Assembly: GCA_040387415.1 (NCBI GenBank)
Contig: JAZKDU010000015.1
Coordinates: 56,166-120,165, forward strand
Reading direction: 5' to 3'
Source of the DNA: Bacteroidota bacterium
GTDB lineage: Bacteria; Bacteroidota; Bacteroidia; 2-12-FULL-35-15
DNA length: 64,000 nucleotides
Below the pieces are notes generated by a model that was not told the DNA's origin, made no database searches, and was given only the letters and a program-made list of their open reading frames with translations. This document shows positions 240 to 42,798 of this stretch, one piece after another. Numbering within the stretch: the stretch's first letter is position 1; every line of letters begins with the position of its first letter. The position numbers and the translations under genes were made by a program.

Positions 240-614
240 TCAGTCTTTTTTTTGCGACTTAGCCAATAATTTTTCTATTCGAGCTTTTAAAACGGAAGGA
301 CTGAACGGTTTAGTAACAAACTCGCTTGCGCCAATCTCAAACGCATCTAATTCGGCTTTTTCTATTCCAAAAGAAGTTAATACAATGATTGGTGTAGATG
401 ATTTTAATTCGTTTCTCACGAAGGAAATAACTTCCATGCCACCTAGAAACGGCATATTAAGGTCAGTTATTACCAAATCGAATGTGCTGATTTTTAATTG
501 TTCCTTCACCTCCATTCCATTACTAACTGCGGTTACAGAATATCCGTTATTTTTAAGATAAAATGTAAGCGAATTTCTTAATAAGTCATCGTCTTCGGCA
601 AATAATAGTTTCAT
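240..614 (-). CDS. Single-domain response regulator (CheY-like receiver)
   Basis: ORF translation has the canonical receiver motifs: EDDD acidic pocket, phospho-acceptor D in LVITDLNMP, conserved T in VLTS and K in KPF. Confidence 0.85.
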   Translation of the reverse strand: MKLLFAEDDDLLRNSLTFYLKNNGYSVTAVSNGMEVKEQLKISTFDLVITDLNMPFLGGMEVISFVRNELKSSTPIIVLTSFGIEKAELDAFEIGASEFVTKPFSPSVLKARIEKLLAKSQKKD

Positions 615-1036
615 TTTATGAGTTTTTTTATTTCAGCTTCTATTTTGTTAAATCCATCATCTCCTTTTGCAATATACGTGCAAATCCCTTCTTTTGCTAT
701 TGATAGAGCCAGTTCAATGCTTTGCTGCGAACTATGAAGAATAAATTCAATAGAGGGATATTCTTTTTTTAATCTTTTTAAAACATCGAATCCTTCTTCT
801 GCATCTTCATAACGATCATTCAAATAATGGTCCATAATGAGTAAATCTGGAATATCACCATTTTGAATTTTTATTTCTGCAACTTCAGCAACAGGCATAC
901 ATTCAACTTCAGCTTTTTCGCCAAATTTTGATTGTATCAAATGCTCTAATTGCCGTAAATAAATAGCATTATCTTCAACCAGAAAAATTAAAAATTTCTT
1001 TGTTTTAGAACTGTTTTTATTTCCGAATAAATTCAT
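611..1036 (-). CDS. Receiver-domain protein (single-domain response regulator)
   Basis: Receiver-like translation: LVEDN, phospho-acceptor D in LLIMDHYL, K in YIAK. The 4-bp ATGA overlap with the downstream RR suggests translational coupling. Confidence 0.75.
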   Translation of the reverse strand: MNLFGNKNSSKTKKFLIFLVEDNAIYLRQLEHLIQSKFGEKAEVECMPVAEVAEIKIQNGDIPDLLIMDHYLNDRYEDAEEGFDVLKRLKKEYPSIEFILHSSQQSIELALSIAKEGICTYIAKGDDGFNKIEAEIKKLIK

Positions 1037-1047
1037 GTTTTCCTGTT

Positions 1048-3702
1048 TTAATATTCATCTTCTAATATTTTCCGAAGAATCGGGTAGTTTTCGTTGAGCG
1101 TTTTCTTAATAAAAGTATACTTTTCCTTCGAAGATTCAACAATTTCCATTTCCTTATTTAGGGCGTTTTTTTCAATAAAACTAAGTTGTTTTTCTACTGA
1201 TGATAAGCCTACTATAGAGATTGAAGATTTTAATTTATGAGATGTAGATTTAATAAGCAGGCTGTCAGAATCATTAAAGGCGCATCCCAGAGTATCAATA
1301 TCTACTGGCACTTGCCTCAAAAACATTTCAATCATCTCCTTTTCGAATATTTTGTTACCATCTGAGAATTCTTTCAAAAATTTTAAATTTACAATTTTTG
1401 CATCACTATCAGTTTCTGTTTTTTCAACCACCTGAACAGGTGCTTTTCTGTCGATATTTTTTTGTGGCAAATAGGAAGAGATCTTAAAGTACAGATCTTC
1501 CTGGGTAAATGGTTTCCCTAAATAATCATTCATCCCAATCTCTAAACATTTATCCTTTTCGCCAACTAACGAATGTGCAGTCATTGCAATAATTGGGATC
1601 GTTAAATTGAGCTGTTCCCGAATTGCTATAGTTGTTTGGTAACCGTCCATTTCAGGCATTTGTAAATCCATTAAAACTAAATCAAATTTTTCTCTTTGTA
1701 ATTTCTCCAACCCCATTTTTCCATTGCCGGCAATTTCGAAATCAAATCCGAATTTGGTTAGAATCTTTTTTGCTAATTGCTGGTTAAGTGTATTATCCTC
1801 ACATAATAATATTTTCACTTTTCCAACATTTTCGTTATGAACGAATAGTTTTTCCTTTTTTTGTGAAGAATTTTTTTGTGCTTTTTGATAAACAAGTTCG
1901 AACGAAAATTCGGAACCCTCATTGAGCTTGCTTTTTAGCTTTATTTCTCCCCCTTGCAATTCCACTAAATTTTTTGCTATACTTAAACCCAATCCTGTAC
2001 CTCCAAATTTTCGAGTCGTTTCTGCATTGGCTTGTGAGAAGCGGTCAAAAACCAAACTTATTTTGTCTTCCGAAATACCTATTCCTGTATCCTTTACTGT
2101 AAAACGTATCTTACACGATTGTTTGTCTTCTTCTAACTTTTTTACAGAAACAGTTACACTACCATTTTCTGTAAATTTCATAGCGTTCCCAATCAAATTA
2201 ATTAATATTTGATTGAGACGAATACTGTCTCCAGTTACGAAGTCTGGTAATCCTGCATCCAGAAAGTGATTGTATTCGAGTTTTTTTTCTTTCGCTTTTC
2301 CATTCATCAAATTGTAAATATTTTTTAAAGCGTCCTTCAAATCGAATGGAACGTTTTCAAGGACAATACTCCCTGATTCAATTTTTGAAAAATCGAGTAT
2401 ATCGTTTATAATAGCCAGTAGGTTTATGCCGGCTAATTGAACTGAATTTAAATTTTCACTTTGTTCTTTATCAAGCTTGCTATCTGCTAGAAGTTCAGTA
2501 AATCCTATAATCGCGTTCATTGGTGTGCGTATTTCATGGCTCATATTTGCCAAAAAACGACTTTTTGCGTGTACCGCTTGTTCTGCTTTTTCTTTCGCTT
2601 TTATAATTTCTTCTTTGGCTTTTTTACTTTCCGATATGTCTTTTGCAAGCCCTAAATAACCTATTATATTGTGATCATGGTCTTTTAAGACTGTGATTGA
2701 CAATTCAACAGGTAATTCCGAACCATCTTTTCGAATATACGTCCATTCGGAAATGTCACTAAGTCCACGTTGTGATTTCATAAAAAACACGTCCATACCA
2801 GGCTCAATTTTTAAATTGAACTCATTACTTAATGTTTCTGCACGAGCCACTACTTCTTCAGGTTTGTGAATGATAGCTGGAGTATGTATTCCGATCATCT
2901 CGTTAGCAGCATAACCAAGCATTTTTTCAGCACCTTTATTAAAAACGGTTATTACTCCTTCAGGATAAGAAACTGCTATGATGGAATAGTCGGTACCATT
3001 TAAAATTACATTTTGAAATTCAGAAAGTTTTTCAATTTCTTCCTGCTGAATTTTTAATTGTTTTTCAGAAGCAACCCTTCTATCATAATCAACAACGAAA
3101 AAATACAACGTAATTAATAAAATTAAAATAGTTAAACTAATACTGCCAATAATAATTCGCGTAGTAGTAAGAAAGTGTTCATTTGCCTTATCAAGTCTTT
3201 CAGACAGGAGTAAGTCTTCGTTTTTTATAAATCGGCTAACCATTCTTTTTATCTCACGCATCCGGTTTTCGCCATAACCCTCAGAGATGCTTTGTTTAGC
3301 AGATTCAAATCCTCTATTTTTATATAATGCAATATTTTGCGTGGAGAATTGAATTTTTTGTGTGATAAGAAAATGGATGGAATCTAATAAGGCAAGCTGC
3401 TTGTTATTGTCTCGTATTAATGTTTTAGCATCTTTGTAATCCCTTTCCAAGTTTACCAGATTGATTTCATAAAACTCTAAAAAGCTTTCTTTTCCTGTAA
3501 TTACATAGCCCCTCTGTTCCGATTCTATATCTTGAATACCGGTTAATATTCTCTGAACCTCGGTTATTACATCTTGAGTGTGATGCACTAAATCTGATGC
3601 TCCCTTGTATTTGGTAGCACTTTGATAGGCGTAAAGACCAATTAAAGTAAGTGTAATTATACTTATGCCGAATGCACCTATAATATTTGTTCTTCCGTTC
3701 AT
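1048..3702 (-). CDS. Hybrid sensor histidine kinase (CHASE3 - TM - PAS - HisKA - HATPase_c - REC - Hpt)
   Basis: 884 aa. CHASE3-like N-terminus with a TM segment. H-box FLANMSHEIRTPMNAI, G-boxes DTGIGI and GGTGLGLSI. Receiver LMDLQMPEMDG. C-terminal Hpt-like HKLKSS. Confidence 0.9.
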   Translation of the reverse strand: MNGRTNIIGAFGISIITLTLIGLYAYQSATKYKGASDLVHHTQDVITEVQRILTGIQDIESEQRGYVITGKESFLEFYEINLVNLERDYKDAKTLIRDNNKQLALLDSIHFLITQKIQFSTQNIALYKNRGFESAKQSISEGYGENRMREIKRMVSRFIKNEDLLLSERLDKANEHFLTTTRIIIGSISLTILILLITLYFFVVDYDRRVASEKQLKIQQEEIEKLSEFQNVILNGTDYSIIAVSYPEGVITVFNKGAEKMLGYAANEMIGIHTPAIIHKPEEVVARAETLSNEFNLKIEPGMDVFFMKSQRGLSDISEWTYIRKDGSELPVELSITVLKDHDHNIIGYLGLAKDISESKKAKEEIIKAKEKAEQAVHAKSRFLANMSHEIRTPMNAIIGFTELLADSKLDKEQSENLNSVQLAGINLLAIINDILDFSKIESGSIVLENVPFDLKDALKNIYNLMNGKAKEKKLEYNHFLDAGLPDFVTGDSIRLNQILINLIGNAMKFTENGSVTVSVKKLEEDKQSCKIRFTVKDTGIGISEDKISLVFDRFSQANAETTRKFGGTGLGLSIAKNLVELQGGEIKLKSKLNEGSEFSFELVYQKAQKNSSQKKEKLFVHNENVGKVKILLCEDNTLNQQLAKKILTKFGFDFEIAGNGKMGLEKLQREKFDLVLMDLQMPEMDGYQTTIAIREQLNLTIPIIAMTAHSLVGEKDKCLEIGMNDYLGKPFTQEDLYFKISSYLPQKNIDRKAPVQVVEKTETDSDAKIVNLKFLKEFSDGNKIFEKEMIEMFLRQVPVDIDTLGCAFNDSDSLLIKSTSHKLKSSISIVGLSSVEKQLSFIEKNALNKEMEIVESSKEKYTFIKKTLNENYPILRKILEDEY

Positions 3703-3767
3703 AAACTTTAAATAAGCTTGTTGAATTTTGTTTTTGAATTTTTTAAATTTTTATAATCTTATATTTG

Positions 3768-6524
3768 TCAACTTTTATACTTTAGGTAATTTGTTGTGAT
3801 TTTGGAATAAAGTTCTTCCTGAGTAAAGGGTTTGCCCACATAATCATTCATTCCAATTTCAAAACATTTCTCTTTTTCTCCAACAAGTGAATGGGCCGTC
3901 ATTGCAATAATTGGTATTTTGAGTTTCAACTCTTCCCTAATTATGATAGTTGTTTGGTATCCATCCATCTCTGGCATTTGAAGGTCCATTAAAATTAAAT
4001 CGAAATTACTTTCCTTTAGTTTTTCTAATCCAATTTTACCATTTGCAGCAATAACAAAGTCAATCCCAAATTTTATGAATACTTTTTTTGCAAGATTTTG
4101 ATTGAGTGCATTATCCTCACATAGTAAGACTTTTATGTCTTTCAATTTTGCATCGGGAACAAAGCTGGTTTTCGAAAAGTGAATTGCATCCGTATCTGCT
4201 TTTTTGTATCGTATTTCAAAAGAAAATTCTGAGCCTTTATTTAATTCACTTTTCAACTGAATTTCACCTCCCTGCAGTTCTACCAAATTTTTTGCAATGC
4301 TTAAGCCTAAACCGGTTCCACCAAATTTCCTGGTGGTTTCTGCATTAACTTGTGCAAATCTGTCAAAAATAGTGTGCTCCATTTCTTTCGGTATGCCAAT
4401 GCCCGTATCTTTAACAGTAAATCGTATTGAATAGTTTAATTCATCCTCTTCCGTCTTTTTTACAGAAATTGTAACGCCTCCCTCTTCAGTAAATTTAATA
4501 GCATTACCAATTAAATTTATTAGTATTTGATTTAGCCTCACACTATCACCCACAACGTACTCGGGAAGCGAACCATCAAGAAAAAAATCATATTCTAAAT
4601 TTTTTTCCTTTGCTTTTATATTTAGAAGATTATAAACATTTTTTAATGTTTCTTTTAAATTAAATTGGGTACTTTCAAGGGTTACATTCCCGGATTCAAT
4701 TTTTGAAAAATCCAAGATATCATTAATAATGGCTAACAGATTAATTCCGGCAAGTTTAACCGAATCCACGCATTCTTTTTGGTCCTCATCTAATTCACTT
4801 TGTTCCAAAAGGTCTGTAAAACCAATAATTGCATTCATTGGGGTTCTAATTTCATGGCTCATATTGGCCAGGAAACTATTTTTTGCTAATACCGCTTGTT
4901 CCGCTTTTTCCCTTGCATTTATAATTTCCTCTTCCATTTTTTTTCGCTCCTCAATATTATTCATAGAGGATACCAGAAAGGGGGCACCACCAATATCAAT
5001 AATTTCGATGGAGTTAAGTACCCAAAACTTTTCACCATTTTTTTTGGACATAACCCCTTCCATTGATCTTACATATCCTTGTTTGTTTAATACCGCAATT
5101 GTTTGTTCGCGATCTGCTTCTGAAATCATATTTAATTCGGTGGAAGTTTTTCCAATAACCTCTTGCCTTGTATAGCCAAAAATTTCAAGAAAACTTTCAT
5201 TTACATATTCTAATTGTTTTGTCGCCATATTTGAAATGGCCATTATAACAGGGTTTTTATCAAATATTTTGAAAAACCGATTGTTACTTTCTTTCAGCTC
5301 TTTTTCAAGAAGAATTCGCTCTGTCAGATCCACTGCAGTGCCCAGCACAAGCTTGCTTCCATCAGATTGAGTAAAAACTATACTATCGTACATCCAGGTT
5401 TTAATAGATCCATCTTTATGTTTAATTTTCATTAGTCCTTTGGATAACCCATCCTGTTCAAGCTCTTCTAAAAAAATTTGCACATATTCTTTGGCATGAG
5501 GAGGCACGATATCAAAAAAATTCTTTGTGCAGGCTTCTTCAACTGAATACCCTATTGATAAAGCGGAGGCGCGGTTAATGGAAAGTATATTTCCCTTTAA
5601 ATCATGTGTACACACAAGGCTCCGGGAATTTTCAAAAAAACCTCTGTATTTTGCTTCGCTTGATAAAAGTTTACTTTCCCAGTTTTTTCTTTCAGATATA
5701 TTTCGTCCAATGCTAAATATTTCTCCTGTATGTTCATCTGGATTTGCCACCCAGGCAATTGATAAGTACTCTCCGGATTTTGTTCTGAATCGGTTTTCAA
5801 AATCAACAGTTTTTATACCTTTCGAAAGTTTTTTTACTTCATCTATAGTACTTTGAACATCATCAGGGTGAATGAAATTAACAAAAGGATTTTCTTTCAA
5901 TTCTTCGGTGGACCATCCCAATGTAGAAGTAAATGCGGGGTTTATTTTCTTAAAATAGCCATCTGAACTGGCTATACATATCATGTCTAAAGAAAGATCA
6001 AATAGTTTTTCTAGTTTATCTTTTTCTATGTTTTTTTTTCTCGTTACAATTTGCGAAACAGCCTCATTTGCTAAAAGGGTTAAAGCTTCCCTTTGTTCTG
6101 GATTTAACACTTTTGCTTTTCTATCAATAACGCAAAGTGTACCGAGTGCAAAACCATTCTTATCAATTAATGGGTAACCCGCGTAGAATTTAATATTAGG
6201 CGTATCAGTTACGAGTGGATTGTTAAAAAAACGCTCATCTTTTGTAGCATCCGACACTTCCATTAGCGAATCGCCTACAATGGCATGCTGGCAAAATGAC
6301 AAGTCGCGCGGTGTTTCTGATACATCAAGTCCAATACTGGATTTAAACCATTGACGATTTTTATCAATTAAACTAATTAAAGCAATTGGAACACCACATA
6401 TTATAGAGGCCAGTTTTGTAAGACGATCGAATGCATCCTCTGGTAAAGTATCAAGAATATTGTATTCCGATAGCGTTTTTAAACGTTCGTCTTCGTTTTT
6501 TGGTAAAGGGGCATTTGTTTTCAT
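3768..6524 (-). CDS. Hybrid sensor histidine kinase (GAF - PAS x~3 - HisKA - HATPase_c - REC), cytoplasmic
   Basis: 918 aa with a GAF-like N-terminus and several PAS blocks. HisKA/HATPase/REC core is about 75% identical to the downstream kinase, so the two are paralogs. Confidence 0.9.
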   Translation of the reverse strand: MKTNAPLPKNEDERLKTLSEYNILDTLPEDAFDRLTKLASIICGVPIALISLIDKNRQWFKSSIGLDVSETPRDLSFCQHAIVGDSLMEVSDATKDERFFNNPLVTDTPNIKFYAGYPLIDKNGFALGTLCVIDRKAKVLNPEQREALTLLANEAVSQIVTRKKNIEKDKLEKLFDLSLDMICIASSDGYFKKINPAFTSTLGWSTEELKENPFVNFIHPDDVQSTIDEVKKLSKGIKTVDFENRFRTKSGEYLSIAWVANPDEHTGEIFSIGRNISERKNWESKLLSSEAKYRGFFENSRSLVCTHDLKGNILSINRASALSIGYSVEEACTKNFFDIVPPHAKEYVQIFLEELEQDGLSKGLMKIKHKDGSIKTWMYDSIVFTQSDGSKLVLGTAVDLTERILLEKELKESNNRFFKIFDKNPVIMAISNMATKQLEYVNESFLEIFGYTRQEVIGKTSTELNMISEADREQTIAVLNKQGYVRSMEGVMSKKNGEKFWVLNSIEIIDIGGAPFLVSSMNNIEERKKMEEEIINAREKAEQAVLAKNSFLANMSHEIRTPMNAIIGFTDLLEQSELDEDQKECVDSVKLAGINLLAIINDILDFSKIESGNVTLESTQFNLKETLKNVYNLLNIKAKEKNLEYDFFLDGSLPEYVVGDSVRLNQILINLIGNAIKFTEEGGVTISVKKTEEDELNYSIRFTVKDTGIGIPKEMEHTIFDRFAQVNAETTRKFGGTGLGLSIAKNLVELQGGEIQLKSELNKGSEFSFEIRYKKADTDAIHFSKTSFVPDAKLKDIKVLLCEDNALNQNLAKKVFIKFGIDFVIAANGKIGLEKLKESNFDLILMDLQMPEMDGYQTTIIIREELKLKIPIIAMTAHSLVGEKEKCFEIGMNDYVGKPFTQEELYSKITTNYLKYKS

Positions 6525-6527
6525 TTT

Positions 6528-6581
6528 TTATGGTCCTAATGGCAGTGCAATAAGAAAACATATGGTTGCTGTTTTTTTCAT
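6528..6581 (-). other. Possible 17-aa upstream ORF (MKKTATICFLIALPLGP) ending 3 nt before the kinase ATG
   Basis: Read directly on the minus strand: ATG at 6579-6581, TAA at 6528-6530, then aaa and the kinase ATG at 6522-6524. Hydrophobic peptide. Confidence 0.2.
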
Positions 6582-6761
6582 TTAACGCAATATAGCTTTC
6601 TAAAATACCGCTTTTTTTTATAGATAAACTGGGTATTTCGATACTCTATTTTAAATCTCAGATAACAGGTACTTAAAACCGGTCACAATTTGCAAATAAG
6701 CAGATGGTGAGCTATTGATGTCTATGAAAAAAACATTCCATTTTAAGGAAATAGTCTATTT

Positions 6762-7451
6762 TTAAAGAAGGTTAAGCTTTTGAAAAAATGTACTTTTGTA
6801 TTTTCGGCTTAGTGGCAGCGACTTCCCTTCTATTATAATTATTTCATCTTCAATCTCAACTATTTTGTCCAATCGGATAATATAAGAATTGTGAATCCTT
6901 GTAAAGTCATAAATTTGCAATTTATTTTCAATTGCTTTCATTGTTGATAGAATAGTGAATTTTTCTTTTGTAGTATAAATATTTACATAGTCTGCCATAG
7001 CTTCTATGTATAGTATATCTTTAGCACTTATTCTGATCAGACGAGAATTTTTTTTTATATACAAATCATCCGTGTTTCGTTGGCTTATCGAAATGCTTTC
7101 TTTTATTTCTTTGGCTTTTTGGGCAGCTTTTAAGAACCGGTTAAAATCAACAGGTTTGAGAATAAAATCGGTAACATTATAATCGTATGTTTCAGCGGCA
7201 TACTCTTTATTCCCGGTAATAAAAATTACCTGCGGTGTTTTGTAATTTTTAACAAAGTCAAGGCCGCTCATTCCGGGCATTTCAATGTCAAGGAAAGCAA
7301 CATCAATATTTTTATGTTTTTCCAATAAATTAACGGCCTCCGTTCCAGAGGTTGCAGTGCCCACGAGGGTTAGAAAATCTATTCGTTCGATACAATTTTC
7401 GACCAGCTTTAAAGCCAATTCATCATCATCGACAATAATACAATTCAGCAT
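6762..7451 (-). CDS. LytTR-family response regulator (REC + LytTR DNA-binding domain)
   Basis: Receiver motifs IIVDDDE and AFLDIEMPGMSG. C-terminal LytTR-like domain (ISAKDILYIEA...IHNSYIIRL). Confidence 0.9.
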   Translation of the reverse strand: MLNCIIVDDDELALKLVENCIERIDFLTLVGTATSGTEAVNLLEKHKNIDVAFLDIEMPGMSGLDFVKNYKTPQVIFITGNKEYAAETYDYNVTDFILKPVDFNRFLKAAQKAKEIKESISISQRNTDDLYIKKNSRLIRISAKDILYIEAMADYVNIYTTKEKFTILSTMKAIENKLQIYDFTRIHNSYIIRLDKIVEIEDEIIIIEGKSLPLSRKYKSTFFQKLNLL

Positions 7452-15543: not shown

Positions 15544-15797
15544 ATATAGGTTGGTATTTAAATGTTCTTAATAAAGAAGAACAATACGTTCATTTTTGCG
15601 GATACAAAGATACAGTTTGTTTTCAGTACTCCTAACAAATCTTATTAACAATCTTAAACTGTAAATGATTCTACTATTTTTTAACGCTACTAACTCGGAT
15701 ACACCTGTTATTTTCATTGCTATTCTTTAAAAATAGGACTACAACTTTATATTTCGTTTCTTTGCACCCGCAAAAAATGTTATTAACAAAAATTCCA

Positions 15798-16679
15798 ATG
15801 ACACATAAGGCTGGTTTTGTAAATATTATAGGAAGCCCTAATGTAGGTAAATCCACACTAATGAATGTTTTGGTAGGCGAGCGCCTGTCCATTATCACCT
15901 CTAAAGCACAAACCACCCGTCACCGGATTATGGGAATTGTGAATGGAGAGGATTTTCAGATCGTATATTCTGATACTCCAGGAGTGTTAAAACCAAATTA
16001 CAAGCTTCAGGAATCCATGATGGACTTTGTTCACACGGCCATTACCGATGCGGATATCATGCTGTTTATGACTGATATTTATGAAGATATTAAAATTGAC
16101 GAAAAGATACTTGCCAAAATAAAAAACGTTACCATACCTGTGTTGCTGCTGATTAACAAAATTGACCTGGCAGCTCAGGACAAATTGGAAGAACAGGTAC
16201 AGCGCTGGAAAACAGAGGTTCCTAATGCAGAAGTAATACCTGTGTCGGCATTGGAAAAATTCAATGTTAACTATGTGTTCGACCGTATTCTGGCACTTTT
16301 GCCTGAAGGACCCGGATTTTATGCGAAAGATGAATTAACGGACAAACCGGAGAAATTTTTCATTTCTGAGATCATCCGCGAAAAAATATTGATGAACTAC
16401 AAAAAAGAGATTCCTTATTCGGTTGAAGTTGTTGTAGAATCATTCAAAGAAGAAGAAAAAATAGTAAAAATACGTGCGGAGATCATGGTGATCCGCGATT
16501 CGCAAAAAGGAATTATCATAGGACATAAAGGTGCCGCTTTAAAAAGAGTGGGTACTCAGGCCCGTAAGGACATGGAAATTTTCCTGCAAAAACAGGTATT
16601 TCTGGAACTTTTCGTAAAAGTAAACAAAGACTGGCGGGACGATCAAAACCAGCTAAAGCGCTTTGGTTATAGCAGTTAG
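15798..16679 (+). CDS. era: GTPase Era
   Basis: G1 GSPNVGKST, G2/G3 DTPG, G4 NKID, C-terminal KH domain. In-frame ATGs also at 15777 and 15717; 15798 fits the Era N-terminus best. Confidence 0.9.
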   Translation: MTHKAGFVNIIGSPNVGKSTLMNVLVGERLSIITSKAQTTRHRIMGIVNGEDFQIVYSDTPGVLKPNYKLQESMMDFVHTAITDADIMLFMTDIYEDIKIDEKILAKIKNVTIPVLLLINKIDLAAQDKLEEQVQRWKTEVPNAEVIPVSALEKFNVNYVFDRILALLPEGPGFYAKDELTDKPEKFFISEIIREKILMNYKKEIPYSVEVVVESFKEEEKIVKIRAEIMVIRDSQKGIIIGHKGAALKRVGTQARKDMEIFLQKQVFLELFVKVNKDWRDDQNQLKRFGYSS

Positions 16680-16808: not shown

Positions 16809-18113
16809 ATGGCAAATATAGTAGCGATAGTAGGACGTCCGAATGTAGGGAAATCAACAATTTTCAACCGTTTGACCGAAAGCAGAAAAGCAATAGTTGA
16901 TTCGGAATCGGGTGTAACACGCGACAGGCATTACGGAAAATCGGAATGGAACGGATTGGGATTTACTGTAATTGATACCGGAGGCTATGTAAAAGGATCG
17001 GAAGATGTTTTTGAGGGAGAAATTCGTAAACAGGTAAAACTTGCCATTGAAGAAGCAAATGTTATTTTGTTTGTACTGGATGTTTCCGAAGGTATCACAG
17101 AAGATGATAAAGTAGTGGCTGATATGCTCAGACGCGGTAAAAAGAAGGTTTTTTTGGTTTCCAATAAGGTAGATAATTTTGTGCGCCAGGGCATGTCGGG
17201 TGAATTTTATGCATTGGGCCTGGGCGAACCATTTAACATTTCTGCCATCAGCGGAAGCGGAACCGGTGAGCTGTTGGATGAAGTGGTGAAAGTGCTGGAT
17301 GCCGACTTTAAAGAAGAGGAATTAAACATCCCCAAATTTGCCATTGTAGGACGCCCGAATGTTGGTAAATCATCCTTTATAAATGCTTTGCTAGGTAAGG
17401 AACGTAATATAGTTACTCCACTTGCCGGCACAACGCGCGACTCTATTAATACGCGTTATACCGCATTTGGTCATGATTTTTTGCTGATTGATACTGCCGG
17501 AATCCGTAAAAAATCGAAAGTAGAGGAAGATCTTGAATTTTATTCGGTAATGCGCTCTATCCGTGCTATTGAGGACTGCGATGTAGCGCTGTTGCTGATT
17601 GATGCACAATTAGGTTTAGAGGCTCAGGACATTAATATTTTCCGTTTAGCGGAAACCAACCGAAAAGGGATTGTTATTGTGGTAAATAAGTGGGATTTGG
17701 TTGAAAAAAGCACCAATTCCACCAAAGAGTACGAAGAAAAGATCCGCGAAAAGCTGGCACCCTTCCGCGATGTGCCTATTATCTTCACCTCTGCCCTTAC
17801 CAAGCAAAGGGTATTAAAAGCCATCGAAGTTGCTGAAAAAGTGAGCGATAATCGCGTTAAAACGATTAAAACCCGTGAGCTTAACGATGTAATGCTACCG
17901 ATAGTTGAAAATCATCCTCCGGCAGCCATCAAAGGCAAGCACGTAAAAATCAAATTTATTAATCAATTGCCTACCCACGCACCTACTTTTGCCTTTTATT
18001 GCAATCTGCCTCAATATGTTACGGAAGCATATATCCGTTTTATTGAAAACAGACTGCGGGAGCAATTTGACTTTTCGGGGGTACCTATTCAAATTTTCAT
18101 GAGAAAAAAATAG
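16809..18113 (+). CDS. der: Ribosome-biogenesis GTPase Der (EngA), tandem GTPase domains + KH-like
   Basis: Two G-domains ([12 protein letters not shown] and [12 protein letters not shown]) with NKVD/NKWD motifs. 434 aa. Confidence 0.9.
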
Positions 18114-18284: not shown

Positions 18285-18314
18285 TTTGGTGAATTAAACT
18301 TATGTATATATTTG
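18285..18314 (+). promoter_or_regulatory. Candidate Bacteroidetes promoter (TTTG ... 18 nt ... TATATTTG) for the SiaB/SiaC-like pair
   Basis: TTTG at 18285-18288 and TATATTTG at 18307-18314, about 50 nt upstream of the ATG at 18365. Confidence 0.3.
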
Positions 18315-18364: not shown

Positions 18365-18910
18365 ATGGTGTTAGATATTTACGGTTTCTACGATAAAATG
18401 GAGCAAAATAATATTATGCTCTCTTTTAAAGGCGATATTACATCAGATCTGCTAACCTCTATTCTTCAAATAATGGAAGCGAAGCTGGACAACTGGCAGG
18501 AAGAACCGAAGGTTAAGAAAAAAGTTTACAATGTGCTGGTTGAATGTTTACAGAATTTATATCACCACATGGACGAAATGGCGCCAAATCAGGATGATAG
18601 AGTTCGTTCAGCCATTTTCATGATAGGTAAAATTGATGGGGTTTATAATATCATTACCGGTAATTACATTAAAAACGAAAACATTCCGAATTTAAAAAAA
18701 TTATTGGACAGCATTAACTTACTAAGCAAGGAAGAATTAAAAGAATACTATAAAGAAATTTTAAATAATGGTGAAATGTCATTAAAAGGCGGAGGAGGCC
18801 TTGGTATGATTGACATCGCACGTAAAACAGGTGGTAAACTTAATTATGATTTTACCCATGTTGATGAAAAATACTCGTTTTTTAGTTTAAATATTAATAT
18901 TTCTCAATAA
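18365..18910 (+). CDS. SiaB-like (DUF6272-type) GHKL-fold serine/threonine kinase of a partner-switch module
   Basis: 181 aa. C-terminal glycine-rich GHKL G2-like box GGGGLGMIDIARKTG, as in anti-sigma-factor-type kinases. Sits directly upstream of a DUF1987/SiaC-like gene, the SiaB/SiaC arrangement. Confidence 0.5.
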   Translation: MVLDIYGFYDKMEQNNIMLSFKGDITSDLLTSILQIMEAKLDNWQEEPKVKKKVYNVLVECLQNLYHHMDEMAPNQDDRVRSAIFMIGKIDGVYNIITGNYIKNENIPNLKKLLDSINLLSKEELKEYYKEILNNGEMSLKGGGGLGMIDIARKTGGKLNYDFTHVDEKYSFFSLNINISQ

Positions 18911-18921
18911 ATAATAAGCAT

Positions 18922-19302
18922 ATGGAAGCAATTTCAATTGAAGGAACACCAAAAACACCAACAGTTAATTTCGATACCGCAAAAGGTTTTTTAGAAATTA
19001 AAGGCCGTTCGATACCTGAAAACTCTATTGAGTTCTACAAACCAATAGTAGATTTGTTAGAAAAATATGCTGGTAAACCACAAGCAGATACAAATGTAAA
19101 TATTCAGTTAGAGTATTTTAACACCAGCTCTTCAAAGTGTATATTGGATGTTTTCAAAAAATTGGAAGGCATCAATAAAGGCGGCAGCAAAGTGGTTATT
19201 AACTGGTATTACGAAGAAGATGATGAGGATATGTTAGAAGCTGGTGAAGATTACCAGGCAATTATCAATGTGCCCTTTAAAATGGTTCAGGTAGTTGATT
19301 AA
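18922..19302 (+). CDS. SiaC-like DUF1987 protein (phospho-substrate of SiaB-type kinases)
   Basis: 126 aa. Pattern GTPKTPTVNFD...GFLEIKGRSIPENSIEFYKPIVDLL matches my recollection of the DUF1987 family; 11 bp after the upstream gene. Confidence 0.55.
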   Translation: MEAISIEGTPKTPTVNFDTAKGFLEIKGRSIPENSIEFYKPIVDLLEKYAGKPQADTNVNIQLEYFNTSSSKCILDVFKKLEGINKGGSKVVINWYYEEDDEDMLEAGEDYQAIINVPFKMVQVVD

Positions 19303-19323
19303 TTTTAAATAACTATATATAGG

Positions 19324-19353
19324 AAAGCCCCGCAAAAATGCGGGGCTTTTTTG
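19324..19353 (+). terminator. Rho-independent terminator after the SiaC-like gene
   Basis: aaagccccgc-aaaaat-gcggggcttttttg. Confidence 0.7.
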
Positions 19354-19539
19354 TTTACTTCCAACCCTTTTAACTTAGCTGGGGAATTAGTATATCTTTG
19401 TAAAAGCGATACAAACCTTCGCATAGCCCCCTTATTTTGGGTGGATATAAATTAGCAGTAATTTTATGTGATACCTTACATTCACAATATTATATTAACC
19501 TTGACCCTTTTAAGTTTTTAAACAAAAGACAATAATAAT

Positions 19540-20178
19540 ATGGGACTATTTGACAAATTATTTGGTAAAAAAGAAACACTAAAACATACAGAAAATAATT
19601 CTGTGAATTTTGACACAACTCAACTTGTTAAGACTGCAGAAATCTTAGACGATGATTTGTATTGGAAAATTATCGACAAATCTCTAAAAAACACTTCAAA
19701 CCAAGACAATCAAGAACAGGTTCTAATACAAGAAATTGCAAACTTGACACCTACTCAAATGATTGGTTTTCGTTTGCGAACAGACAAACTTCTATATGAC
19801 ACCTATAACTCGGACATGTGGTGTGCAGGATACATAATGAATGGTGGATGTTCTGACGATGGATTTGAATATTTTCGAAACTGGGTTATTTCAAGAGGGA
19901 AAGAAATATACTATAAAGCAAAAGAAAACCCAGACAACTTAATAGACGAAGTTGATAGTGATTTAGAAATGTATGACTTTGAAAACTTTTGGTATGTTGC
20001 TCTTGAAGCTTTCAAGGAAAAGACAGGAAAAAATTTATACGACTATATTGACGATGAAAATTTCAAAACAAAAGAAGGACAATACCCACAATTTGAGTTT
20101 ACATGGCGAGAAGAAAATCCAGAAAGTATGAAAAAAATTTGCCCAAGATTATATGATAAATTATGGGGCAGAAAGTAA
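19540..20178 (+). CDS. DUF4240-like hypothetical protein; compositionally atypical (about 29% GC)
   Basis: 212 aa. The W/Y-rich motif ...WCAGYIMNGGCSDDGFEYFRNWVISRGKEIY... resembles DUF4240. Hand GC count of the first 120 nt is 35/120, versus about 40% in neighbouring genes. Confidence 0.5.
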   Translation: MGLFDKLFGKKETLKHTENNSVNFDTTQLVKTAEILDDDLYWKIIDKSLKNTSNQDNQEQVLIQEIANLTPTQMIGFRLRTDKLLYDTYNSDMWCAGYIMNGGCSDDGFEYFRNWVISRGKEIYYKAKENPDNLIDEVDSDLEMYDFENFWYVALEAFKEKTGKNLYDYIDDENFKTKEGQYPQFEFTWREENPESMKKICPRLYDKLWGRK

Positions 20179-20398
20179 AAAATACCGCTAACAGACGTTT
20201 GGCAAAAAAGCATGTTCAATATTTAAATGAAGCTTTATGCTTCGTATTAAGTTAAGTGCTGGCAGCCAGTTTAGTGTTTCAAATCACCAAATTCGGGGAA
20301 CTACAAACCGTCAGTGCCAATGCAATTTAGATAGACACATTATTAAATTGAAAAATTTAAAGTGCGGAGTTAGCACTATAATCACTGACGACAACACA

Positions 20399-23300
20399 AT
20401 GAAATATTTTTTACTATTTTTATCCATTGCTATTTTTTCAACGACAAACGCACAAGCCCCCGGCTGGCAATGGGCAAAACGTGCTGGAGGAGTTGGCGAT
20501 GATGTTGGACAAAGTATTTCAACCGATGCAAGCGGAAATGTTTTTGTAACGGGTAGCTTTACTAGTACCGTTACTACTTTTGGCTCTACCACTTTAACCC
20601 ATTCCATTTTCACTGTTTACAATGATGATCTTTTTGTTGTGAAATACGATGCTTCCGGAAACGTGCTCTGGGTAAAATCAGCAGGAGGAACAGGTAATGA
20701 TGTTGGACAAAGCATTTTCACCGATGCAAACGGCAATGTATTAGTAACAGGTTACTTTACTAGCTCTTCCATTACCTTCGGAACAACTACTTTAACTAAT
20801 ACGAACGGTCAGTCTCTTTTTGTTGTAAAATACGATGCTGCAGGAAATGTTCTTTGGGCGAAATCAGCAGGACGTATCTCTAGTTATGGCACAGGTATTA
20901 CAGCTGACGCAAGCGGAAATGTTTTGGTGACTGGTGGCTTTTATAGTTCATCTATAATTTTTGGGACGACTGCTTTAACCAATACTGGTTCAAATACCAG
21001 TGATGTTTTTGTGGTGAAATACGATACTTCGGGTAATGTGCTCTGGGCGAAATCGGCAGGAGGAACAGGCGATGATTTAGGACGAAGTATTTCTACCGAT
21101 ACAAGTGGAAATATATTAGTAACGGGTGATTTTTACAACGTTTCTATCACTTTCGGAACCACTACTTTAATTAATACAGTGCATGTTTATCCTTCTTATA
21201 ATGATATTTTTGTCGTAAAATATGATACTTCGGGCAGTGTACTTTGGGCGAAATCTGGAGGAGGAACTTCCCAAGATTATGGATTAAGCATTTCAACTGA
21301 TGTAAGCGGAAATATTTTGGTAACAGGTAAGAGTGTAAGTTCTTCTATCACTTTCGGGTCAACCACTTTAAATAGTGCAAGTGTTTATGTTGTGAAATAC
21401 GATGGTAACGGTAATTTGCTTTGGGTGAAATCTGCAGGTGGAACTGATGGGGGCATGGGCATTTCCACCGATGCAAATGGAAATGTATTTATTGTTGGTA
21501 ACTTTGCCAGTCCTTCCATCACTTTTGGAGCAACAATTTTAACCAAAACAGGTATAAGCAGCGCCCAAGATATTTATGTAGTAAAATACGATCCTTCAGG
21601 TAATGTACTTTGGGCTAAATCAGCAGGAGGAGATTCGACCGAAAAAGGCAATGGGATTTCCACCGATGACAACGGAAACATAGTGATAACAGGTAGCTTT
21701 GGAAGTGCTTCCATTATATTTGGAACAGACACCTTAACCGGTAATTATCCAAATAGGTTTATATATGTCGCTAAGATTTGTCAAATAGCAACGCCCTTAA
21801 TATCCACAAGCAGTTCAGTTACTTTTTGCCAGGGAAATTCTATAACTCTTACTGCAAGTTCGGCTGCTAGTTATCTATGGAGTAATAATTCAACCACTCA
21901 AAGTATCACAGTTTCAAGTTCTGGAAATTATTCCTTAACGATAAATTCTGGAAGCAATTGTTCTGCATCATCAGTCGCTAAAAATGTTACAGTAAACCCT
22001 TTGCCGACTGTAACTATAACTCCAAGCGGATCTACGACTTTCTGCCAGGGAGATTCAGTAACGCTTACGGCAAGTTCAGCCAATACTTACTCCTGGAGTA
22101 ACAATACAATTACACAAAGTGCAACTGTTTTAAGTTCGGGGAATTATACCATAACAGTAACTGATGGAAACAATTGTTCTGCAACATCCTCCGCGACTAT
22201 AGTTACCGTTAATCCTTTGCCAAATGCTATAATTACAGCTAACGGAATAATTCCTTTTTGTGAGGGCGATTCTGTAAGACTTACGGCAAGTTCCGCAAAT
22301 TCGTATTTATGGAGCAATGGTGCAACAACCCAAAGCATCATTGTTCCTAATCCTGGAAATTATTTTGTAGCAGTAACTAATTCCTGCGGTATTGATACAT
22401 CGTCTGCAACAAATGTAACTATTAATCCTTTACCCAACGCCACTATAACTGCAAGTGGAGCAATTACTTTCTGTGAGGGAGATTCAGTAACACTCACTGC
22501 AACAAGTGGTATGACTAGTTATCATTGGTCAAATAATGAAACAACGCAAAATATTAAAGTTTTATCTTCTGGAAATTATTCGGTAAAAGTTATAAATGAA
22601 AATGGTTGTTCTAAAACTTCGGCTGCAACAACCATAACAGTAAATCCTTTACCAATAGCAACAATTACTGCAAGTGGAGCAATTACATTTTGTCAAGGAG
22701 ATTCAGTAAGACTCACTGCAACAAGTGGTATGAACAGTTACCATTGGTCAAATAATGAAACAACGCAAAGTATTACGGTTTTATCTTCCGAAAATGATTC
22801 GGTAAAAGTTACCAATGGAAATAGTTGTTCTAAAACTTCGGCTGCAATGGCCATAACAGTTAATCCTTTGCCAGCAGCAACAATTGCTGCAAGTGGAGCC
22901 ATTACATTTTGTCAAGGAGATTCAGTAACACTGACTGCAACAAGTGGTATGAGCAGTTACCATTGGTCAAATAATGAAACAACGCAAAGTATTATAGTTT
23001 TATATTCCAGAAATGATACAGTGACAGTTACCAATGGAAATGGATGTTCTGAAACTTCGGCTGCAATAACAGTGACAGTTAATCCATTACCTGTTACACC
23101 TACTGTTATATCAAGCGGTGCAGTTTTAACATCAAGCATTGTATTAGGTAATCAATGGTATTTGAATGGAAATATTATTACAGGCGCAACGAATCAAACC
23201 TACACAACAACACAAAGCGGAACCTACACAGCGATTGTTACTGTTAATGGTTGCTCTTCCGGGCCATCTTCACAAATAATAATTACGGTAGGTATTAGTG

Positions 23301-23551
23301 AAATAAATAACAATGATAATTCTTTTGCAATTTACCCCAACCCAACTAATGGCATCTTTGTTATTGAACACCCTAACACAAAAGCAACTATAGAAATATA
23401 TAGCGTAGTAGGAGAAAAGGTTTTCAAATCAATAACAACAACTTCGAAATCTGAAATTGATTTAAGCAGTGGACCTAAAGGAATATATTTTATTCGTTTG
23501 ACACAGGACGACAATATTATAAAAATGGACAAACTTGTAATCACCAACTGA
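20399..23551 (+). CDS. Large T9SS-secreted surface protein: signal peptide, ~8 SBBP beta-propeller repeats, ~9 tandem Ig-like domains, C-terminal T9SS (Por) sorting domain
   Basis: MKYFLLFLSIAIFSTTNAQA signal at 20399 (the ORF-track start at 20237 is an in-frame upstream extension). Repeats GNVLVTG.F.S.SITFGTTTL. Repeated ~73-aa units PLPxATITASGAITFCQGDSVTLTA. C-terminal YPNPTNGIF...GIYFIRL CTD. Confidence 0.85.
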   Translation: MKYFLLFLSIAIFSTTNAQAPGWQWAKRAGGVGDDVGQSISTDASGNVFVTGSFTSTVTTFGSTTLTHSIFTVYNDDLFVVKYDASGNVLWVKSAGGTGNDVGQSIFTDANGNVLVTGYFTSSSITFGTTTLTNTNGQSLFVVKYDAAGNVLWAKSAGRISSYGTGITADASGNVLVTGGFYSSSIIFGTTALTNTGSNTSDVFVVKYDTSGNVLWAKSAGGTGDDLGRSISTDTSGNILVTGDFYNVSITFGTTTLINTVHVYPSYNDIFVVKYDTSGSVLWAKSGGGTSQDYGLSISTDVSGNILVTGKSVSSSITFGSTTLNSASVYVVKYDGNGNLLWVKSAGGTDGGMGISTDANGNVFIVGNFASPSITFGATILTKTGISSAQDIYVVKYDPSGNVLWAKSAGGDSTEKGNGISTDDNGNIVITGSFGSASIIFGTDTLTGNYPNRFIYVAKICQIATPLISTSSSVTFCQGNSITLTASSAASYLWSNNSTTQSITVSSSGNYSLTINSGSNCSASSVAKNVTVNPLPTVTITPSGSTTFCQGDSVTLTASSANTYSWSNNTITQSATVLSSGNYTITVTDGNNCSATSSATIVTVNPLPNAIITANGIIPFCEGDSVRLTASSANSYLWSNGATTQSIIVPNPGNYFVAVTNSCGIDTSSATNVTINPLPNATITASGAITFCEGDSVTLTATSGMTSYHWSNNETTQNIKVLSSGNYSVKVINENGCSKTSAATTITVNPLPIATITASGAITFCQGDSVRLTATSGMNSYHWSNNETTQSITVLSSENDSVKVTNGNSCSKTSAAMAITVNPLPAATIAASGAITFCQGDSVTLTATSGMSSYHWSNNETTQSIIVLYSRNDTVTVTNGNGCSETSAAITVTVNPLPVTPTVISSGAVLTSSIVLGNQWYLNGNIITGATNQTYTTTQSGTYTAIVTVNGCSSGPSSQIIITVGISEINNNDNSFAIYPNPTNGIFVIEHPNTKATIEIYSVVGEKVFKSITTTSKSEIDLSSGPKGIYFIRLTQDDNIIKMDKLVITN
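22205..23085 (+). repeat. Intragenic tandem array of ~219-bp (73-codon) near-identical repeats (at least 4-5 units)
   Basis: Unit starts aatccttt(g/a)cc... at 22211, 22424, 22643, 22862 and 23081. Period is 219 bp; the three central units are roughly 90% identical at DNA level. Confidence 0.8.
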
Positions 23552-39551: not shown

Positions 39552-40814
39552 ATGAACTTAAAAGGAAATGTTTTATTAACATGTGTATCTTACCTGATGC
39601 TATTTACAACAGGTATTGCACAAGAAATTAAAAATGGCAACGAGAAACCAGCAGCCAAGGACTCTTTGTTGGCGGAAACAGCTATAGCAACGACTAAAAT
39701 TCCAGTCAAAAATTGGTATGAACAAATATCAATCAGAGGATATGCCCAGGTAAGATATAACAGGTTACTTGAAACGAATGAACTGTTAAAATGTGAGCAA
39801 TGTGACAAATCATGGGGAAATGGGGGCTTTTTTATCAGGCGTATGCGAATAATATTTTTTGGTAATGTGCACGAGAGGGTATATATATACATTCAGCCTG
39901 ATTTTGCTTCATCCCCTTCCACCGGATCGAATCATTTTGGACAATTACGTGATGCCTATTTTGATTTATCATTGGATAAAAAGAAAGAATTTCGTTTCCG
40001 TATAGGCCAAAGTAAAATTCCATTTGGGTTTGAAAACATGCAATCCAGTCAAAACCGTTTGCCATTAGATAGGAATGACGCTTTAAACAGCGCAGTTTCA
40101 AATGAACGGGATTTAGGGGTGTTCTTTTACTGGGCACCTGAAAAAACAAGAAAGCTTTTTAGTTCACTGGTAAATGATGGACTAAAAGGAAGCGGAGATT
40201 ACGGGGTTTTAGGAATTGGTGCATTTAATGGGCAAACTGCCAACAAAACTGATGCTAATAAAGATCCTCATGTAGTAGCTAGATTATCTTATCCCCTTGA
40301 AATTAAAGGACAAATAATTGAAGCCGGTATTCAGGGATATACTGGCCAATATGTGGTAGAAAGCAGATCTACGGGTGTAAAAGGGCCCAACAAAGATTTT
40401 ACATTTATGGACGAAAGAATGGCAGCAAGCTTTGTATTATACCCGAAACCCTTTGGTATCCAGGCAGAATACAATGTCGGCCGTGGTCCGGAATTTAATT
40501 CCGAAACCGACTCAATAGAAACTCAAAATTTAAAAGGAGGATATATAACAGCCTCCTATTTTATTAAATTAAAAAAACAAATTATTATCCCATTTGTTAG
40601 GGTGCAGTATTATGATGGTGCGAAAAAGCATGAATTGGATGCACGCAGTTATACTGTAAATGAATATGAATATGGCATTGAGTGGCAGCCGATCAAAAAT
40701 TTTGAATTTGTTGCAATGTATACTATGTCAGAGCGAAGATTCGAAGATTATAAACTACAGGATAATAAACAAAAAGGTAGTTTATTGCGATTACAAGCCC
40801 AGTTTAATTTTTAA
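39552..40814 (+). CDS. Porin, phosphate-selective porin O/P-like
   Basis: Signal peptide and a beta-barrel pattern ending in F. Located next to a DUF47 + PiT pair. Confidence 0.65.
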   Translation: MNLKGNVLLTCVSYLMLFTTGIAQEIKNGNEKPAAKDSLLAETAIATTKIPVKNWYEQISIRGYAQVRYNRLLETNELLKCEQCDKSWGNGGFFIRRMRIIFFGNVHERVYIYIQPDFASSPSTGSNHFGQLRDAYFDLSLDKKKEFRFRIGQSKIPFGFENMQSSQNRLPLDRNDALNSAVSNERDLGVFFYWAPEKTRKLFSSLVNDGLKGSGDYGVLGIGAFNGQTANKTDANKDPHVVARLSYPLEIKGQIIEAGIQGYTGQYVVESRSTGVKGPNKDFTFMDERMAASFVLYPKPFGIQAEYNVGRGPEFNSETDSIETQNLKGGYITASYFIKLKKQIIIPFVRVQYYDGAKKHELDARSYTVNEYEYGIEWQPIKNFEFVAMYTMSERRFEDYKLQDNKQKGSLLRLQAQFNF

Positions 40815-40983
40815 TCTATCAAAGCCAGTTTATACCTAAAATAATGTCAAAAAGAAATAAAAAAACAAAACTTAACAATTAATTAACATTAAAACAACGA
40901 AAGGGTAACTCGCTTTTATTACTAAATGGTTTAAACCAAGCTACTTTTGAGCAAAAATTAAAAACACTTCAAAAAATTAAAAA

Positions 40984-41628
40984 ATGGCTTTCAACATCTT
41001 CAAATTTTTCCAACCAAAAGATAAAATATTCTTCGTGCTTTTTGAAAAAGCAACTGCCAATTTAATTGACATATCAAAAGCACTGGTAGAAATGCTGAAT
41101 ACTCCTGCAGGTCCGAGAAGAAAGGAATTAATACGTGAGATTGAACGTCTTGAGCATGTTGGAGACAATATTACTCATGAAACTTTTCATCAGTTAAGTG
41201 CAAATTTTATTACCCCTTTTGACAGGGAAGATATTCATTCCTTAATTTCTGCAATTGATGATATTGCAGATTATATACACGGTTCTTCCAAGCGAATTGA
41301 GCTTTATAAAGTAGAAAACGTTACTGTTCCTATGATTAAAATAGCCGAACTAATTGAAAAATGTTCGGACGAACTGCATAATGCGGTATGTGAGCTAAAG
41401 AACATGAAAAATATTAATAAAATTAAAGAAGCCTGCGTTCGTATTAACAGTATTGAGAACCATGCAGATGATATTTTTGATATGGCAATTGCGAAACTGT
41501 TTGAAGAAGAAAAAAATGCGGTGGAAATTATAAAAATGAAAGAAGTGCTTCAAGCCCTGGAAACAGCTACTGATATGTGCGAAGACGCTGCAAATGTGCT
41601 TGAATCCATTTTAGTTAAAAACGCATAA
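40984..41628 (+). CDS. DUF47 (PhoU-like, TIGR00153/YkaA-type) PiT-associated protein
   Basis: 214-aa helical protein directly upstream of a PiT-family transporter, which is the conserved pairing. Confidence 0.8.
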   Translation: MAFNIFKFFQPKDKIFFVLFEKATANLIDISKALVEMLNTPAGPRRKELIREIERLEHVGDNITHETFHQLSANFITPFDREDIHSLISAIDDIADYIHGSSKRIELYKVENVTVPMIKIAELIEKCSDELHNAVCELKNMKNINKIKEACVRINSIENHADDIFDMAIAKLFEEEKNAVEIIKMKEVLQALETATDMCEDAANVLESILVKNA

Positions 41629-41633
41629 AACGA

Positions 41634-41712
41634 ATTGGAGAATTGAAAAATTAGAGAGCGTTGGAGAATTAAATATATTGCCCAATTTCTCCTTTCAGAA
41701 TTTCTCTAATTC
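41634..41712 (+). promoter_or_regulatory. Long imperfect inverted repeat (potential RNA hairpin) in the DUF47-PiT intergenic spacer
   Basis: Left arm aaattagagagcgttggagaatt (41648-41670) pairs with right arm aatttctcctttcagaatttctctaatt (41684-41711) across a 13-nt spacer. Confidence 0.35.
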
Positions 41713-41739
41713 ACTAAATCCCAAACTAGCAGATAAAAA

Positions 41740-42798
41740 ATGACTATATTAATCATCATTATTATACTTGCAATTATATTTGATCTTATCAATGGTTTTC
41801 ATGATGCGGCAAATTCAATTGCAACAATTGTTTCTACAAAAGTACTAAGCCCTTTGCAGGCCGTTATCTGGGCTGCATTTTTTAATGTGATTGCCTTCTG
41901 GATCTTCGACTTAAAAGTTGCTGATACTGTTGCTAAAATTGTACATACGGATGCCATTAATTTCGCGGTAGTATGTGCAGGATTAATCGCTGCAATTGCA
42001 TGGAATTTATTAACATGGTGGTTTGGTATTCCTTCCAGCTCTTCACACACATTGCTTGGCGGCTTTTCTGGTGCCGCAGTTGCCCATGCGGGTTTCGGTG
42101 TTGTTAATCAGGAAAAAATACTAATTACCTTTTCATTTATTTTCCTTGCTCCTATTCTTGGGATGATCATATCGTCTATTATTACCATGATCATTGTAAA
42201 TATCAGTAAAAAAGCACATCCTGCAAAAGCAACGCGCTGGTTTAAACGGTTGCAGCTGGTTTCATCAGGTTTGTTCAGTATAGGCCACGGAGGTAACGAT
42301 GCACAAAAAGTAATGGGTATCATGGCCGCGGCTTTAATGGTATATATGGCACAACTAAAAGCACAAGGATTACCTATACCTGAATGGGCAACCATTGAGC
42401 AAACGATGGGGAAAAACGGTAAACTGTCTATAAGCCACATTCCCGACTGGATACCTATTGCATGTTATACTGCAATAGGATGCGGCACCATGATGGGCGG
42501 CTGGAAAATTATAAAAACAATGGGTACCAAAATCACTAAAGTGACTCCACTAGAAGGAGTAAGTGCTGAAACAGCGGGAGCATTGACGTTATTTATGACA
42601 GAAAAAATGGGTATCCCTGTGAGCACCACGCATACTATAACAGGCTCTATCATTGGTGTTGGAATCACCAAACGTATATCAGCCGTAAAATGGGGTGTAA
42701 CCATTAATTTACTTTGGGCATGGGTATTAACCATTCCTATCAGCGGCTTACTTGGGGCCATTCTTTTTTGGTTGCTTACTTTCTTTGGCGTTAAATAA
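41740..42798 (+). CDS. Inorganic phosphate transporter, PiT family
   Basis: Duplicated PHO4 motif GxNDxxN (GFHDAANS and GHGGNDAQK). 352 aa. Confidence 0.9.
   Translation: MTILIIIIILAIIFDLINGFHDAANSIATIVSTKVLSPLQAVIWAAFFNVIAFWIFDLKVADTVAKIVHTDAINFAVVCAGLIAAIAWNLLTWWFGIPSSSSHTLLGGFSGAAVAHAGFGVVNQEKILITFSFIFLAPILGMIISSIITMIIVNISKKAHPAKATRWFKRLQLVSSGLFSIGHGGNDAQKVMGIMAAALMVYMAQLKAQGLPIPEWATIEQTMGKNGKLSISHIPDWIPIACYTAIGCGTMMGGWKIIKTMGTKITKVTPLEGVSAETAGALTLFMTEKMGIPVSTTHTITGSIIGVGITKRISAVKWGVTINLLWAWVLTIPISGLLGAILFWLLTFFGVK

Follow-up and report, generated by a model that had tools for sequence, protein, structure and literature searches.

The window analysed here is a 64-kb stretch (64,000 nucleotides) of contig JAZKDU010000015.1 from a Bacteroidota bacterium, and it contains two adjacent genes, siaB and siaC, whose products belong to the families of the kinase SiaB and the phosphoprotein SiaC of Pseudomonas aeruginosa. 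In P. aeruginosa, the SiaABCD system (PA0169-PA0172) consists of the PP2C phosphatase SiaA, the kinase SiaB, the phosphoprotein SiaC, and the diguanylate cyclase SiaD, and its mechanism serves as the reference for this analysis (PMC7647112, PMC7278518, PMC8457831). An initial annotation of the window described the pair as an orphan partner switch. The pair and its signals are as follows.

18365..18910, (+) strand: siaB-family gene for a 181-aa predicted Ser/Thr protein kinase of the GHKL fold (DUF6272), assigned with Pfam and NCBIfam hidden Markov models (HMMs)
18922..19302, (+) strand: siaC-family gene for a 126-aa STAS-like predicted regulatory phosphoprotein (DUF1987) with Thr68 as putative phospho-acceptor, assigned with Pfam SiaC and by alignment to PDB entries
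18285..18314, (+) strand: predicted Bacteroidetes-type promoter with TTTG (-33 element), an 18-nt spacer, and TATATTTG (-7 element), assigned by sequence reading and footprint
19319..19354, (+) strand: intrinsic terminator, a G+C-rich hairpin followed by a T run (RNA fold, -24.6 kcal/mol; z, -6.15)

Both open reading frames (ORFs), the 11-nt gap between the siaB stop codon and the siaC ATG, and the glycine-rich lid box GGGGLGMIDIARKTG (residues 142-156 of ORF1) lie exactly where the initial annotation placed them. Its assignment of the proteins to the SiaB/DUF6272 and SiaC/DUF1987 families was checked by HMM search and was upheld. ORF1 scored 145 bits against Pfam PF19788 DUF6272 (E = 1.3e-42; cut-off, 26.6) and 167.8 bits against NCBIfam NF038262 SiaB_fam_kinase (cut-off, 85). 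ORF2 scored 153.5 bits against Pfam SiaC/PF09345 (E = 2.5e-45; gathering cut-off, 24.5). The equivalog cut-offs were not reached, with 89.3 bits for ORF1 against the 225 required of true SiaB (NCBIfam NF038264 kinase_SiaB) and 97 bits for ORF2 against the 150 required of true SiaC (NCBIfam NF038265). Hence, the two proteins are family members and not orthologues of SiaB and SiaC. A protein identical to ORF1 (P0121) is already named 'SiaB family protein kinase' at NCBI, and homologues of ORF2 carry the labels DUF1987 or SiaC family.

A PDB sequence search matched ORF1 over its full length to SiaB of the P. aeruginosa SiaB-SiaC complex 6KKO (1.4e-14) and ORF2, full length and gap-free, to P. aeruginosa SiaC (6KKO_C/6K4F; E = 1.2e-19). 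ORF1 has the GHKL (Bergerat) ATP-binding fold, closest to SiaB, which confirms the fold proposed initially. Its residues E60 and N64 and the lid K141-G147 align with 6KKO_A and are invariant in 35 homologues. E60 is the counterpart of E61 in P. aeruginosa SiaB, the predicted catalytic residue (PMC7647112). T68 of the window SiaC (in FNTSS) falls on T68 of P. aeruginosa SiaC (in LNTSS), the phosphosite on which SiaB and SiaA act as kinase and phosphatase, respectively (PMC7647112, PMC7278518). Among 97 diverse family representatives, 92 have T or S at position 68, and the neighbours N67 and S69 are also conserved. Judged from their sequences, the two genes form a strongly conserved switch of a kinase and a phosphoprotein, of the type of Pseudomonas SiaB and SiaC. 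By analogy with that system, the predicted activity is ATP-dependent phosphorylation of the SiaC partner by the SiaB homologue.

Species-representative genomes were scanned, and 80 loci from uncultured Bacteroidia were obtained, with SiaB 71-92% and SiaC 76-98% identical to the window proteins. A few loci (L043, L075, and L076) carry the labels Sphingobacteriaceae or Arcticibacter. Thirteen of these loci (L001-L013; SiaB 85-92% identical to the window) form the sister group. The pair lies downstream of der in all 12 sister loci with upstream sequence, mostly in the order era-der-siaB-siaC (L010 begins at siaB). The upstream neighbours in the window are likewise era (15717..16679) and der (16809..18113). 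Most other loci have a gene for a lipoprotein of ~270-300 aa directly upstream of siaB on the same strand. This protein carries a signal peptide with a lipobox Cys, as well as conserved cysteines, and it had no match in Pfam. Upstream of the lipoprotein gene lies the gene for a sensor phosphatase of ~1070-1115 aa, composed of Reg_prop beta-propellers, a Y_Y_Y domain, a transmembrane (TM) segment, a coiled coil, and a SpoIIE domain. Where a genome locus extends far enough upstream, siaB directly follows the lipoprotein gene in 58 of 73 cases, and the lipoprotein gene is preceded by the long sensor PP2C gene in 44 of 67. On these counts, the usual Bacteroidia module consists of sensor phosphatase, lipoprotein, SiaB, and SiaC; this four-gene layout is called canonical below.

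A second scan was anchored on the lipoprotein and yielded 58 metagenome loci, 11 of which end at or within the lipoprotein gene. In the loci that extend past it, siaB is directly next (47/47), and siaC is present wherever the contig continues. No phosphatase-lipoprotein locus without siaBC was found among these 58 loci. Partial layouts were of two kinds: lipoprotein-siaBC without an adjacent long phosphatase gene (eight genome loci and L091, L100, and L103) and siaBC without the lipoprotein gene (L049-L051). Gene order across these loci indicates that the linkage of phosphatase, lipoprotein, and siaBC has been lost several times. The window layout is probably a stripped version of the module and derived from it. 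The term 'orphan' in the initial annotation is accurate within the window, but it does not hold for the related Bacteroidia, in which the pair follows the lipoprotein and sensor phosphatase genes.

Two further features of the canonical loci were observed. A gene for a multi-TM SpoIIE phosphatase of ~470 aa sits just 5' of the long sensor phosphatase gene at 4006..5430 (+) in L026, with equivalents in L014-L047; therefore, many canonical modules hold two tandem PP2C genes. L028 carries a solitary SiaB-family paralogue at 4053..4631 (-), 34% identical and with the lid GGAGLG kept, which is convergent to siaBC and has no adjacent SiaC gene.

The initial annotation had given the pair its own TTTG/TATATTTG promoter, a strong terminator, and a place in an AT-rich spacer after der, and each of these was found. 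The der-siaB spacer is 251 bp long with a G+C content (GC) of 21.5%. The promoter-like elements, TTTG at 18285-18288 and TATATTTG at 18307-18314, fit the Bacteroidetes sigma-A consensus, TTTG/TAnnTTTG. In eight syntenic relatives, the block TTGTTTG...TATATATTTGCGTA hardly varies, and the remaining spacer is unalignable. Upstream of siaB in the sister loci, the block (TTGTTTG...TATATATTTGC) stands out as a nearly invariant phylogenetic footprint. Canonical loci have the same block between the lipoprotein gene and siaB, and in L014 and L033 it comes after a terminator-like hairpin. In the L061-L080 clade, however, only a few bases separate the lipoprotein gene from siaB. The occurrence of the block in both the stripped and the canonical layouts suggests that siaBC has its own promoter in both. 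The terminator hairpin is 16 bp long, and none of 200 shuffled sequences was as stable. A simple consensus terminator scan reported no site at 19319..19354 despite the strong fold, an apparent limitation of the tool. The predicted promoter, siaB, siaC, and the terminator appear to form an autonomous transcription unit.

The ratio of nonsynonymous to synonymous substitution rates (dN/dS) was calculated against sister loci with the same stripped layout. It was 0.03-0.05 for siaB, 0.01-0.04 for siaC, and 0.02-0.04 for der, with synonymous sites at or near saturation in these comparisons. By this measure, the conservation of SiaC exceeds that of SiaB. The ratios indicate that the siaBC cassette is functional and under purifying selection, like der.

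The region 3' of siaC was also compared. The genes that follow siaC vary among the sister loci inspected (alpha-2-macroglobulin-like, prfA, glpD, secA, dnaN, and Rrf2). In the window, the siaBC terminator is followed directly by a DUF4240 gene at 19540..20178 (+); none of the 13 syntenic relatives has this gene, which occurs only in the window. These differences mark the site 3' of siaC as a variable region. The initial annotation called the DUF4240 gene compositionally foreign, and this description was not supported: at 0.32, its GC does not set it apart from the pair (0.32-0.34; der, 0.415; window, 0.359), though the gene is missing in the syntenic relatives.

Partners of the pair were sought throughout the window. 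A Pfam scan covered window ORFs of at least 110 aa other than obvious shadow ORFs; it detected a single SpoIIE/PP2C gene and no GGDEF domain. A PP2C-domain HMM run on the six-frame translation of the window found only the same gene. A GGDEF probe, validated on the PDB diguanylate cyclases PleD, WspR, and SiaD, had no match in the window. These searches agree with the earlier observation that neither a PP2C nor a GGDEF gene adjoins the pair, and no PP2C gene was found within 43 kb of it in the window. The single PP2C gene is the following.

62499..64000, (-) strand: candidate (unproven) trans-acting phosphatase with Y_Y_Y, TM segment, coiled coil, and SpoIIE/PP2C domain (Pfam SpoIIE, 3.7e-21; Y_Y_Y, 4e-13)

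This ORF (62499..>64000) lacks a stop up to base 63998 and is open to the window end, despite which the ORF program lists it with a TTG start at 63980. Because the frame is open at the window edge, the N-terminal part of the protein lies outside the window; the missing part is probably a beta-propeller. If the protein were the cognate SiaA-like phosphatase, the system would be complete within the window. Consistent with this explanation, it is the sole PP2C in the window and has the same C-terminal architecture as the siaBC-linked phosphatases of the relatives. However, over its C-terminal 500 residues it shares only 34-37% identity with the linked phosphatases, against 49-82% among the linked phosphatases themselves, and its catalytic domain is nearer to other SpoIIE paralogues (42-49%). 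On these identities it was rejected as an orthologue of the linked phosphatases and classified as a paralogue. In addition, the 13 syntenic relatives have neither this gene nor another PP2C homologue less than 10 kb from the pair, and in the window the gene after it encodes an enoyl-CoA hydratase, not a lipoprotein. A system complete within the window is therefore unlikely. The linked sensor phosphatase of the relatives implies that a SiaA-like partner exists for this SiaB/SiaC subfamily, and in this genome that partner is probably encoded elsewhere.

We consider it likely that the pair is a Thr-phosphorylation partner switch with a trans-encoded phosphatase and an output other than a cyclase. 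Kinase activity, the Thr68 phosphosite, PP2C antagonism, and partner switching are predicted by homology to P. aeruginosa SiaABCD. The SiaB-family GHKL kinase would bind the small STAS-like SiaC and phosphorylate it at Thr68. A PP2C/SpoIIE sensor phosphatase would strip the phosphate upon an envelope or extracellular signal; in the relatives, a periplasmic or envelope cue may be sensed by the beta-propellers together with the lipoprotein. In the window, the cassette lies behind era-der and away from the input genes, so a phosphatase acting in trans from another locus would be needed. Whether SiaC is phosphorylated would set its target binding, with unphosphorylated SiaC engaging a target other than a SiaD-type diguanylate cyclase.

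The output might instead run through the kinase. In a classical anti-sigma switch, the SiaB-family protein would be the output arm that sequesters a sigma factor or another regulator, like RsbW or SpoIIAB, and unphosphorylated SiaC would be the releasing antagonist. An extracytoplasmic function-type sigma factor-like gene, judged by eye, is present downstream of the pair in one clade only; no sigma factor gene is conserved beside the pair across clades, and none adjoins it in the window. In P. aeruginosa, it is SiaC that carries the output, and the effector is not bound by SiaB (PMC7278518). SiaC also shows stronger conservation than SiaB, which fits a SiaC with several partners. The Bacillus modules RsbU/RsbV/RsbW-sigmaB and SpoIIE/SpoIIAA/SpoIIAB-sigmaF also differ from the pair in several respects. 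The sequences are only 5-10% identical, the pair has no linked sigma factor, the substrate belongs to the DUF1987 branch and is not a canonical STAS protein, and the kinase has an extra N-terminal segment. We regard an anti-sigma function as rather improbable.

A Pseudomonas-like output was evaluated next to these. Under this explanation, unphosphorylated SiaC would activate a diguanylate cyclase encoded elsewhere in the genome, and the pair would be part of a dispersed SiaABCD system. The homology of both proteins to SiaB and SiaC is in its favour, as is the limited view of this genome, of which only 64 kb were covered. However, the validated probe found no GGDEF domain in 1.73 Mb of sequence, comprising the window and 138 related loci; the absence of SiaD is therefore not special to the window locus. 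In P. aeruginosa, 14 SiaC residues contact the SiaD stalk (PMC8457831). Of the corresponding residues, the window SiaC keeps only those of the phospho-loop (Y65, N67, T68, and S69), and those outside it are lost, including three that are charge-reversed (D29R, D79K, and R103D). Both proteins also score below the SiaB and SiaC equivalog cut-offs, and GGDEF proteins are rare in Bacteroidota. Taken together, a dispersed SiaABCD system is very unlikely.

Fusion proteins were searched among 1.84 billion cluster representatives, in which ~5,000 SiaC-family proteins were found. The fusions were SiaB-SiaC, SiaB with three SiaC domains, tandem SiaC, and HEAT repeats with two SiaC domains (examples among 50%-cluster representatives: P0247, P0263, P0274, P0262, and P0251). 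The single-chain SiaB-SiaC proteins support the kinase-substrate pairing. This Rosetta-stone search found no SiaC fused to an output enzyme among the ~5,000 representatives. Apparent fusions of SiaC with SLT and HTH_8 domains were set aside as apparent gene-calling artefacts. With no GGDEF gene in 139 loci and no output-enzyme fusion, no output could be assigned to the switch, as the initial annotation had also concluded.

That the pair is a decaying, non-functional remnant left after separation from the input genes would fit the lost linkage to the phosphatase and lipoprotein genes and the AT-rich setting beside a variable region, but this is effectively refuted because dN/dS is 0.01-0.05 over near-saturated synonymous divergence, as low as for der, and the ORFs are intact, the promoter is conserved, the terminator is strong, and all key residues are kept.

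Several points weigh against a Thr-phosphorylation switch with a trans-encoded phosphatase and a non-cyclase output. The cognate phosphatase was not located in the window, in which the only PP2C is a paralogue. Neither tblastn nor an HMM of 15 homologues found a lipoprotein homologue in the window. Which way the rearrangement went, namely whether the pair moved or the input genes moved or were lost, was deduced from layout prevalence and not from a rooted tree. The sub-equivalog scores limit functional transfer to the family level, and kinase and phosphoprotein function in the Bacteroidota members is predicted by homology. Finally, a GGDEF protein or an orthologue of the linked sensor phosphatase may be encoded outside the 64 kb in view.

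More tentatively, the Bacteroidia module as a whole could be a distinct pathway free of cyclic diguanylate (c-di-GMP). SiaC would then control a conserved core target new to partner switches, and siaBC could be uncoupled from its sensor and perhaps rewired to other SpoIIE phosphatases. We offer this broader proposal as a possibility on the doubtful side.

The pair consists of members of known families, and the Bacteroidia system differs from SiaABCD in its sensor, its extra lipoprotein, and its lack of a cyclase. The linked phosphatase of the relatives has periplasmic Reg_prop beta-propellers and a Y_Y_Y domain, whereas SiaA has a HAMP-type sensor. A conserved lipoprotein gene is added between the phosphatase gene and siaB. 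No SiaD/GGDEF partner is near any of the 139 loci, and the SiaD-contact residues are not conserved. The window differs further, with both input genes unlinked and scores under the equivalog cut-offs.

Other partner switches were compared as well. The cyanobacterial slr1658/slr1659 proteins, from another phylum, appear to be a sister pair within the two superfamilies and are likewise not tied to a GGDEF gene. The matches to their NCBIfam models were weak and far under the cut-offs (ORF1 against slr1658 models, E = 2.4e-5; ORF2 against slr1659, E = 1.2e-3). In HptB-HsbR-HsbA-HsbD of P. aeruginosa and BgrSTUWV-BgrR of Sinorhizobium, a STAS-type phosphoprotein likewise regulates an enzyme and not a sigma factor (PMC7647112, PMC8457831). 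They differ from the present pair in using canonical STAS and RsbW-type proteins and in controlling diguanylate cyclases.

A literature search found no paper on SiaB/SiaC-family proteins outside Pseudomonas. DUF1987/SiaC is widespread (~5,000 cluster representatives), and the sole worked-out example activates a diguanylate cyclase. The Bacteroidia proteins form a large and very conserved subfamily with no cyclase near any copy, a different sensor, and a separable kinase/substrate cassette. The identity of the target would reveal other outputs of SiaC switches in a phylum that makes little use of c-di-GMP. For annotation, an 'orphan' pair of this kind is better read together with trans-encoded SpoIIE phosphatases than as a broken SiaABCD operon.

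Other genes of the window were recorded in passing. The gene at 20237..23551 (+) encodes a 1104-aa secreted protein with SBBP beta-propeller repeats and a type IX secretion system C-terminal sorting domain. This protein contains about six tandem immunoglobulin-like modules of ~78 aa, with the recurring sequence ITASGAITFCQGDSVTLTATSG...WSNNETTQSI. A dense signalling cluster occupies 240..7451 (-). It encodes two stand-alone receiver proteins, a CHASE3-PAS-HisKA-HATPase-REC-Hpt hybrid kinase (1048..3702), a GAF-PAS-kinase-REC hybrid (3768..6524), and a LytTR response regulator (6762..7451). A phosphate-uptake cluster at 39552..42798 (+) encodes a phosphate-selective porin O/P, a PhoU-like DUF47 protein, and a PHO4-family transporter. 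In the sister locus L006, these phosphate-uptake genes sit upstream of era-der-siaBC.
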